Part shown: piece after piece, positions 5,861-9,178 of the stretch
Numbering within the stretch: position 1 is the stretch's first letter
How the letters are laid out: the number at the start of each line of letters is the position of its first letter
DNA from: a virus
Lineage: Duplodnaviria > Heunggongvirae > Uroviricota > Caudoviricetes
DNA: 18,533 bases
IMG/VR virus record: IMGVR_UViG_2541047722_000018
Location: 1 to 18,533 of that record
Strand: one strand, 5' to 3'
The notes under the pieces: model-generated
What the model was told of the DNA's origin: nothing
What the model saw: only the letters and a program-made list of their open reading frames with translations
Databases searched by the model: none
Translations under genes and position numbers: made by a program

Positions 5861-8647
5861 ATGAGCACGAAATTTAAAACCGTTATCACTACTGCCGGAG
5901 CCGCAAAGCTGGCAGCCGCCACTGTCCCCGGCGGGAAAAAAGTAAACCTGTCTGCAATGGCCGTGGGTGACGGTAATGGCAAATTGCCGGTGCCGGATGC
6001 CGGTCAGACGAAACTGGTGCATGAGGTCTGGCGTCACGCTCTGAATAAAGTCAGCGTGGATAACAAGAATAAAAACTATATCGTGGCTGAACTGGTTGTA
6101 CCGCCAGAAGTGGGCGGCTTCTGGATGCGTGAACTTGGTCTGTATGACGATGCCGGAACACTGATTGCGGTATCCAACATGGCAGAAAGCTATAAGCCAG
6201 AACTGGCTGAAGGCTCCGGACGTGCGCAGACCTGCCGCATGGTTATTATTCTCAGCAACGTGGCGTCCGTTGAGCTGAGTATTGATGCCAGCACGGTGAT
6301 GGCGACGCAGGATTACGTCGATGACAAAATCGCAGAGCATGAGCAGTCCCGCCGCCATCCTGACGCCACGCTGACAGAAAAAGGTTTTACTCAGTTAAGC
6401 AGTGCAACAAACAGCACCAGTGAAAAGCTGGCAGCAACGCCAAAGGCAGTAAAAGCAGCCTATGACAATGCTGAAAAACGTATGCAGAAAGACCAGAACG
6501 GTGGCGATATTCCAGATAAGGGCGCTTTTCTGGACAATGTTGGCGTTACCAGCCTGACGTTTATGAAAAACAATGGCGAAATGCCGCTTGATGCTGATCT
6601 GAATACATTTGGTCCCGTTAAGGCTTATCTGGGGATCTGGTCTAAAGCTACCTCAACTAACGCAACACTGGAGAAAAATTTTCCGGAAGATAATGCTGTC
6701 GGTGTGCTTGAGGTTTTTGCTGCCGGCAATTTTGCAGGTACGCAACGCTTCACCACGAGAGACGGCAATGTATACATACGCAGACTCGCCAATAAGTGGA
6801 ATGGCTCTGATGGTCCGTGGGGCATATGGCGTCACACTCAATCAGCTACCCGCCCTTTGAGTACGACTATAGACCTGAATACGCTTGGAGCCGCCGAACA
6901 TCTTGGTTTATGGCGTAACAGTAGCTCGGCTATAGCTTCATATGAACGCAATTATCCAGAGGAAGGCGGCTTTGCTCAGGGGATGCTTGAGATCCTCGAA
7001 GGCGGGAATTATGGAAGAACGCAACGTTATACCACTCGCCGTGGAAATATGTATGTCCGCTGCCTTGCGGCAAGCTGGGATGTATCAAATCCGCAGTGGG
7101 AACCGTGGTTAAGAGTCGGTCATCAGTCAGAGAGTCGTTATTACGAAGGTGATTTAAATGTTCTAACCGACCCCGGTATTTACAGTGTTACAGGAAAGGC
7201 AACAAACGGTCCGATGCTGGACACCGTTGGCGCGACACTACTTGGGATACTGGAAGTAATCAGACGTTTTGATGGTGTGTCTGTCTGGCAGCGTTACACA
7301 ACCACAGGGAAATCAGAAACCACACAGGGACGCACTTTTGAGCGCGTCTACGCCGGGAGCAAATGGACCGAATGGCGAGAAGTATATAACTCCTTTTCGT
7401 TGCCTCTGAATCTGGGCATCGGTGGCGCAGTGGCAAAACTATCCAGTCTGGACTGGCAGACCTACGATTTTGTGCCGGGCAGTCTGATAACCGTGCGGCT
7501 TGATAACATGACCAACATTCCCGACGGTATGGACTGGGGCGTCATTGATGGCAACCTGATAAACATCGCAGTTGGTCCGAGTGATGATTCCGGTACGGGA
7601 CGCTCAATGCATGTATGGCGAAGCACTGTAAGTAAAGCCAACTACCGCTTTTTTATGGTGCGCGTTTCAGGAAATCCGGGAAGCCGCACGATTACAACAA
7701 GACGAGTACCAATCATTGACGAAGCCCAGACATGGGGCGCGAAACAGACATTCAGTGCTGGCCTTTCTGGTGAACTGTTCGGCAATGCTGCGACAGCAAC
7801 AAAGCTGAAAACAGCCCGTAAAATTAATAACGTTTCGTTTGATGGAACATCAGATATTAACCTGACGCCTGAAGATATTGGTGCATTGCCAATAACGGGA
7901 GGAACTCTTACCGGCGGTTTAACTGCTGCTGGCGAGATTATTTCCAAATCGGCGAATGGTCTTCGTATTGCCTATGGCAACTATGGATTCTTTATCCGAA
8001 ACGATGGTTCAAGCACATACCTCATGTTGACCAATTCGGGCGACAGCCTGGGAACATGGAATAGTTTAAGGCCGCTTACCATTAATAACGCCAGTGGAGC
8101 TGTTTCTATCGGTAATAGTTTAACTGTTAATGGTGATATAGGAACCAATGCTTGGGTATATGCAAATCGTTTTGCAATTAATAGCAGTACCGGAATGTGG
8201 ATAAATATGCGTGACCAGAATGTTATTTTTGGACGTAATGCGGTATCCACCGATGGTGCTCAGGCATTGTTACGTCAGGACCATGCTGATCGCAAATTTA
8301 TGATTGGTGGTCTGGGGAATAAGCAATTTGGCATCTACATGATTAATAATTCAAGGACAGCCAATGGCACCGATGGTCAGGCGTACATGGATAATAACGG
8401 GAATTGGCTTTGCGGTGCGCAAGTTATTCCCGGCAATTATGGTAATTTTGACTCACGCTATGTGAGAGATGTCAGACTTGGCACACGTGTTGTTCAGACC
8501 ATGCAAAAAGGCGTGATGTATGAAAAATCAGGTCATGTAATCACGGGGCTTGGTATTGTCGGTGAAGTCGATGGTGATGACCCCGCAGTATTCAGACCAA
8601 TACAAAAATACATCAATGGCACATGGTATAACGTCGCACAGGTGTAA
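5861..8647 (+). CDS. H: Tail fibre protein (P2 gpH-like N-terminus, divergent repeat-containing distal region), 928 aa
   Basis: N-terminus MSTKFKTVITTAGAAKLAAA... is the conserved P2-type fibre anchor. It is longer than the 669 aa I recall for P2 H. It has three tandem ~92-aa repeats, a GGTLTGGL motif common in enterobacterial phage fibres, and a visibly more AT-rich distal part. Confidence 0.85.
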   Translation: MSTKFKTVITTAGAAKLAAATVPGGKKVNLSAMAVGDGNGKLPVPDAGQTKLVHEVWRHALNKVSVDNKNKNYIVAELVVPPEVGGFWMRELGLYDDAGTLIAVSNMAESYKPELAEGSGRAQTCRMVIILSNVASVELSIDASTVMATQDYVDDKIAEHEQSRRHPDATLTEKGFTQLSSATNSTSEKLAATPKAVKAAYDNAEKRMQKDQNGGDIPDKGAFLDNVGVTSLTFMKNNGEMPLDADLNTFGPVKAYLGIWSKATSTNATLEKNFPEDNAVGVLEVFAAGNFAGTQRFTTRDGNVYIRRLANKWNGSDGPWGIWRHTQSATRPLSTTIDLNTLGAAEHLGLWRNSSSAIASYERNYPEEGGFAQGMLEILEGGNYGRTQRYTTRRGNMYVRCLAASWDVSNPQWEPWLRVGHQSESRYYEGDLNVLTDPGIYSVTGKATNGPMLDTVGATLLGILEVIRRFDGVSVWQRYTTTGKSETTQGRTFERVYAGSKWTEWREVYNSFSLPLNLGIGGAVAKLSSLDWQTYDFVPGSLITVRLDNMTNIPDGMDWGVIDGNLINIAVGPSDDSGTGRSMHVWRSTVSKANYRFFMVRVSGNPGSRTITTRRVPIIDEAQTWGAKQTFSAGLSGELFGNAATATKLKTARKINNVSFDGTSDINLTPEDIGALPITGGTLTGGLTAAGEIISKSANGLRIAYGNYGFFIRNDGSSTYLMLTNSGDSLGTWNSLRPLTINNASGAVSIGNSLTVNGDIGTNAWVYANRFAINSSTGMWINMRDQNVIFGRNAVSTDGAQALLRQDHADRKFMIGGLGNKQFGIYMINNSRTANGTDGQAYMDNNGNWLCGAQVIPGNYGNFDSRYVRDVRLGTRVVQTMQKGVMYEKSGHVITGLGIVGEVDGDDPAVFRPIQKYINGTWYNVAQV
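6599..7385 (+). repeat. Three tandem ~92-aa (276-279 nt) protein-level repeats inside tail fibre H
   Basis: Repeat units start at 6599, 6875 and 7154, each beginning with an LNT/LNV motif and sharing an ...L(E)VxxxGN(F/Y)xxTQR(F/Y)TTRxGNxYxRxLAxxW... core. Confidence 0.6.
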
Positions 8648-8650
8648 TTT

Positions 8651-9178
8651 ATGCAGCATTTAAAAAATATTACTGCGGGTAATCCAAAAACTGTTGCCCA
8701 ATATCAACTGACAAAAAATTTTGATGTTATCTGGTTATGGTCCGAAGAGGGAAAAAACTGGTATGAGGAAGTAAGTAATTTTCAGGAAGACACGATAAAG
8801 ATTGTTTACGACGAGAATAATATAATTGTCGGCATCACCAGAGATGCTTCAACGCTCAACCCTGAAGGTTTTAGCGTTGTCGAGGTTCCTGATATTACCG
8901 CCAACCGACGTGCTGATGACTCAGGTAAATGGATGTTTAAGGATGGTGCCGTGATTAAGCGGATTTATACGGCAGACGAACAGCAACAACAGGCAGAATC
9001 ACAAAAGGCCGCGTTACTTTCCGAAACCGAATCCGTGATTTTGCCGCTGGAGCGCGCTGTCAGGCTGAATATGGCAACAGATGAGGAGCGCAGTCGACTG
9101 GAAGCATGGGAACGCTACAGCGTTCTGGTCAGTCGTGTGGATCCTGCAAATCCTGAATGGCCGGAAATGCCGCAATAA
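8651..9178 (+). CDS. G: Tail fibre assembly protein / chaperone (P2 gpG, Tfa family), 175 aa
   Basis: Directly after H; size as P2 G; AT-rich like the distal part of H; ends ...[12 protein letters not shown]. Confidence 0.8.

Follow-up and report, generated by a model that had tools for sequence, protein, structure and literature searches.

Tandem pyocin-knob domains as probable structural beads in the H tail fibre of a P2-like prophage

The window analysed here, a stretch of 18,533 nucleotides, carries the tail-fibre gene H of a P2-like (Peduovirus) prophage of E. coli; its DNA is 98% identical over 92% of its length to that of Yersinia phage vB_YpM_22. The H product belongs to the tail fibre protein family phrog_381 (E 9e-196), and the local gene order is that found around P2 gpH, wherein a Tail_P2_I gene (baseplate gene I) lies upstream of H and a Caudo_TAP gene (G) lies downstream. 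Given its N-terminal collar domain, the gpG-type chaperone gene that follows it, and its place between I and G, H is a tail fibre of the P2 gpH type. A 373-aa ORF beside H is without a match in PADLOC, PHROGs and Pfam. The features of the locus are as follows.

5861..8647, + strand: tail-fibre gene H of a P2-like (Peduovirus) prophage (928 aa, from the ORF list)
5861..6313, + strand: N-terminal tail-collar / baseplate-attachment domain, aa 1-151 (Pfam PF12571, E 3.8e-59)
6368..6490, + strand: phage tail fibre repeat, aa 170-210 (Pfam PF03406, E 2e-21)
6581..6874, + strand: knob 1, aa 241-338 (HMM domain 241-338; pLDDT 73-88, five strands; fold matches are pyocin, phi11 and phi812 knobs)
6875..7153, + strand: knob 2, aa 339-431, with an HMM envelope from aa 333 (40% identity to knob 1, z = 32)
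7154..7411, + strand: knob 3, aa 432-~517 (diverged copy, the most variable knob of the three)
7433..7777, + strand: the fourth module, D4 (aa 525-639), conserved and accompanying the knobs
7796..8083, + strand: T4 gp34-type C-terminal trimerisation domain, aa 646-741 (Pfam PF21446, E 1e-28)
7913..8641, + strand: C-terminal domain of Mu gpS type at aa 685-927, presumably the tip that binds the receptor (domain E 1e-105 to Tail fiber protein S, PDB 5yvq_A)
8651..9178, + strand: gene G, encoding the assembly chaperone of the tail fibre (Caudo_TAP, Pfam PF02413, E 1.2e-34)

The tail fibre repeat at aa 170-210 also aligns to Mu gpS residues 110-176, and aa 646-741 match PDB entries 4uxe and 5nxh with E values of about 1e-18 to 1e-19.

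The preliminary description of this DNA reported three tandem repeats of ~92 aa in H, beginning at positions 6599, 6875 and 7154. These positions all fall in frame 0 of the H ORF, where they correspond to aa 247, 339 and 432, and three tandem units are indeed present at aa ~241-338, 339-431 and 432-~517. The boundaries first proposed are slightly narrow, in that unit 1 begins near aa 241 (nt 6581) and unit 3 extends to aa ~512-517 (nt ~7396-7411) rather than ending at 7385. The proposed motif (LGxW, E(K/R)N(F/Y)PE, GN(F/Y)xxTQR(F/Y)TTRxGNxYxRxLA) describes units 1 and 2 but not unit 3, wherein only DLNxL, GxLEV, QRYTT and WxxW are kept.

Self-BLASTP of H returned the diagonal alone, and Smith-Waterman alignment with shuffled sequences was used instead. 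Units 1 and 2 align with a score of 182 versus 26 +/- 4.8 in shuffles (z = 32.5), and 0 of 500 shuffles do as well. Thus, self-alignment finds a significant internal repeat in H. The same two units share 40% amino acid identity and 51% codon-aligned nucleotide identity.

Unit 3 is more distant. Its pairwise Smith-Waterman alignments reach a z of about 2 (27 of 500 and 17 of 500 shuffles were as good), and an HMM built from units 1 and 2 reaches it only at an i-E of 0.01-0.02. When small profiles are compared by hhalign, unit 3 is matched to units 1 and 2 with E 7.7e-6 and a probability of 84%, and with deep, mutually exclusive profiles (156 vs 85 domain instances) the probability rises to 98.2% and E falls to 5.7e-14 over 75 columns. 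HMM matches are also reciprocal, with the model of units 1 and 2 finding unit 3 at 1e-5 and the unit 3 model finding unit 1 at 2.9e-5. Moreover, AlphaFold places five strands in an identical order in all three units, with the pattern shifted by about 91 and 90 residues from one unit to the next. Because the hhalign comparisons, the reciprocal matches and the shared strand order agree, the homology of unit 3 is established at the level of profile and fold. The low pairwise z and the modest HMM i-E might suggest that there are two true repeats only and that the likeness of unit 3 is due to chance or compositional bias, but the non-overlapping deep profiles and the reciprocal cross-matches leave this reading a negligible probability.

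H was also said to be ~260 aa longer than P2 gpH, and the lengths of 928 and 669 aa, which differ by 259 aa, bear this out. P2 gpH (NP_046775) shares with H the N-terminal 204 aa (aa 1-204, 85% identity), the last 89 aa (70% identity) and a downstream gpG chaperone gene, and the two proteins align in those two regions only. By contrast, the middle 375 aa of P2 gpH are unrelated to H, P2 gpH as a whole holds no knobs (the best knob-HMM match has an i-E above 1), and there is no collinear homology along the shaft. The non-P2 middle of H includes, besides the three knobs, D4, the gp34-type trimerisation domain and the Mu gpS-type C-terminal domain. Domain duplication as the origin of the units is supported, but a duplication or insertion inside a P2-type fibre shaft is not, since the whole middle of H is non-homologous to P2 gpH and forms a different mosaic.

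The units have the properties of pyocin-knob domains, which were first defined in the R1 and R2 pyocin fibres as modules of ~85-95 residues wherein five or six strands form an antiparallel beta-sheet with connecting loops (PMC6116203). In two AF2 models, both of monomers and with overall mean pLDDT values of 62 and 53, each unit is of this size and has five strands in the same order, with pLDDT 70-91. As the preliminary description had suggested, structure prediction was followed by fold searches with Foldseek, and known knob-bearing receptor-binding proteins stand at the top of the results. For both models, the top matches are the R1 and R2 pyocin fibres, phi11 gp45, the phi812 RBP, phage K gp144, AS12 gp42 and T4 gp34. 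The R1 pyocin fibre 6cl5_A is matched with E 4.2e-6 over 203 columns at 22% identity, and matches to the phi812 RBP, phi11 gp45, 80alpha and P68 fibres all have E < 1e-4. Four knob-like PDB entries named by Buth et al., namely 5EFV, 5M9F, 6EU4 and T4 gp34 (PMC6116203), are among the matches. As modelled, the H units resemble pyocin Knob1 and Knob2 in fold.

A profile of knobs 1 and 2 searched against all PDB sequences points in the same direction, matching R1 pyocin 6cl5_A with E 0.0035, the R2 fibre with E 0.14-0.19 and Pa193 gp47 with E 8e-4. The R1 match lies at residues 147-212 of the chain, within Knob2 after allowing for the construct start, and points to a sequence relationship that is marginal but specific. 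No Pfam-A or NCBIfam model matches H aa 240-645, and NCBIfam is blank for H and for each single unit, so the family assignment rests on the fold searches with monomer models and on the marginal pyocin profile E values. Fragments that are 99% identical are named 'pyocin knob domain-containing protein' at NCBI. The triple repeat of H is therefore real but ordinary, being built of a domain type already known.

A recent tandem duplication within a fibre gene would leave near-identical copies arranged head to tail in the DNA, as in the host-range duplications within the T4 fibre gene 37 that Tetart et al. (1996) reportedly described. Tandem Repeats Finder detects no DNA-level repeat in the knob region, and the units are only 42-51% identical at the nucleotide level. 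The same collinear arrangement of knob 1, knob 2, knob 3 and D4 occurs at ~57-59% identity in gp37 of RB14, RB3, RB5, T6 and others, in about 190 T-even records. Between H and the T-even gp37-like protein, orthologous modules are 70, 61, 45 and 54% identical (knob 1, knob 2, knob 3 and D4, respectively), and the knob orthologues are thus closer to one another than are the paralogous units 1 and 2 within H. Because a DNA-level repeat is absent and the same collinear cassette is present in T-even gp37, the triplication is, as judged from sequence, ancient and not specific to the present prophage.

Comparison with related H proteins, which the preliminary description had proposed, likewise shows that the cassette is widely present, and that it is not lineage-specific. 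Among 5426 complete E. coli genomes, 275 have the knob region, as do 228 phage records, and knob copies range from 1 to 6 per protein among 148 related representative proteins. The 259-aa difference in length, together with the lack of knobs in P2 gpH, could be taken to mean that the extra ~260 aa came from a recent, lineage-specific event in which a domain was duplicated in, or inserted into, an H shaft of P2 type. Such an event is highly improbable, given the absent DNA repeat, the mere 51% nucleotide identity of units 1 and 2, the closer relationship of gp37 units than of H paralogues, the wide occurrence of the region, and the fact that the entire middle of H, not just an insert, is non-homologous to P2 gpH. 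A 679-aa variant, P0102, that is without aa 331-576 was considered as a natural knob deletion and rejected, as it sits in a decayed prophage remnant and is uninformative on function. The 'pyocin knob' has been described as a mobile pseudo-domain of coliphage fibres (PMC12143355).

Our preferred reading, to which we assign a probability of about 0.85, is that H residues ~241-517 are three tandem pyocin-knob copies derived from an ancient triplication, that together with D4 they form a mobile cassette, and that they would serve mainly as structural beads. The closest fibres of known structure, those of the R1 and R2 pyocins (PDB 6CL5, 6CL6, 6CT8/6CU2; Buth et al. 2018, PMC6116203), likewise have knobs of ~85-95 residues with a five- or six-stranded antiparallel sheet, arranged in tandem along a contractile-tail fibre shaft, with the attachment end on one side and the C-terminal binding domain on the other. 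They differ from H in having two knobs rather than three and in sharing about 14-22% identity with it. The knobs of H are followed by D4, the gp34-type domain and the Mu gpS-type tip, whereas those of the pyocins are followed by an iron-containing shaft and a lectin foot. Knob-like domains are also present in Staphylococcus phage RBPs (phi11 gp45 5EFV, phage K gp144 5M9F, phi812 9EUF) and in tailspikes (AS12 gp42 6EU4), but in a different virion context and with a sequence similarity no better than a profile match of E 0.05.

In the T6/RB14/RB3-type T-even phages, the cassette occupies aa ~63-455 of a 1014-aa gp37-like protein, the distal subunit of the long tail fibre. There it adjoins the gp37 N-terminus, which in T4 fibres joins gp36, whereas in H it follows the P2-type baseplate-attachment domain; the tips of the two fibres differ. 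Closer relatives are the vB_YpM_22 tail fibre (YP_010107752) and other Peduovirus H proteins (phages D8, 720R8 and PhiR44_2), which have the same architecture to ~aa 677 with a knob cassette 99.3% identical to that of H, but carry a gp37_C-type tip in place of its C-terminal ~250 aa (from ~aa 678). Because vB_YpM_22 joins 99% identical knobs to a different C-terminus, the tip is the exchangeable part of the fibre.

In the H fibre, the cassette of three knobs and D4 has the conserved baseplate-attachment end of P2 type on one side and, on the other, an exchangeable receptor-binding tip, here Mu gpS-like. By analogy with the pyocin crystal structures, each knob would form one globular bead on a homotrimeric shaft, with its sheets packed round the three-fold axis and its loops exposed. 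The beads would lengthen and stiffen the fibre and may act as folding nuclei for the trimer, and exposed loops, above all those of the fast-evolving knob 3, could touch LPS sugars with low affinity and thereby help to orient the fibre. Primary host specificity would reside in the C-terminal tip, and in a P2-like coliphage host range has been mapped to C-terminal residues (PMC5285337). The H knobs are likely structural beads with possible secondary LPS contacts.

The suggestion that the repeats add a secondary receptor- or glycan-binding module agrees with a published hypothesis for this domain class, in which Knob2-type secondary binding has been proposed for R-type pyocins and for the fibres of Pseudomonas Migulavirinae (PMC6116203, PMC12625404). 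By this analogy, the H knobs could be dedicated lectin-like modules that bind sugars of LPS or O-antigen and take part in setting the host range. In the two-site model published for pyocin fibres, Knob2 is the part that varies most, a knob-like prism of K1F binds sialic acid (PMC6116203), and host range correlates with Knob2 substitutions in Pseudomonas phages (PMC12625404). Within the cassette, variability is highest in knob 3 and its loops (entropy 0.72 for knob 3 vs 0.59 for the other knobs), and of the units shared by H and gp37, knob 3 is conserved least (45%). However, this variability is moderate, and the difference between loops and strands is modest (entropy 0.79 at non-strand vs 0.64 at strand positions). 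Moreover, C-terminal residues alone changed host range in the P2-like coliphage (PMC5285337), and 99% identical knobs are joined to unrelated tips in phages grown on different species. That fibres used on E. coli and on Y. pestis combine the same knobs with different tips favours a generic structural role over specific receptor binding, and we regard dedicated lectin-like knobs as possible but doubtful.

An extended form of this idea, which we offer tentatively and as the less probable account, is that the three-knob array, above all knob 3, constitutes a second LPS-binding site that with the Mu-S-type tip would set the fibre's orientation and thereby help to trigger contraction, as in the R pyocin two-site model, and that D4, which always follows the array, represents an uncharacterised bead family. 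If true, T-even gp37 and P2-like H fibres would be exchanging the knob 1-knob 2-knob 3-D4 cassette as a functional unit, and not as a mere spacer.

The value of the analysis lies mostly in annotation, as it correctly maps the domains of a common P2-like tail fibre of E. coli in the order attachment domain, three pyocin knobs, D4, gp34-type domain and Mu-S-type tip. This map gives cut points in such fibres for the engineering of chimeric receptor-binding proteins, and the four-bead cassette is documented as common to temperate P2-like and virulent T-even phages.

The remaining module of the cassette, D4, has no Pfam match and no sequence relative in the PDB, and its pLDDT is < 50 in both AF2 monomer models. 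A reading of D4 as a fourth knob is not supported, as hhalign comparisons with small and deep knob profiles give probabilities of 0.1-13% and its pLDDT is low. A deep D4 profile searched against the PDB returns spurious matches alone, to designed 'Pizza' propellers, and a homologue search with D4 only finds nothing beyond short near-identical fragments. D4 may be a fibre bead family without a solved structure or curated model. Among related fibres there are 86 D4 instances, some of them in tandem.

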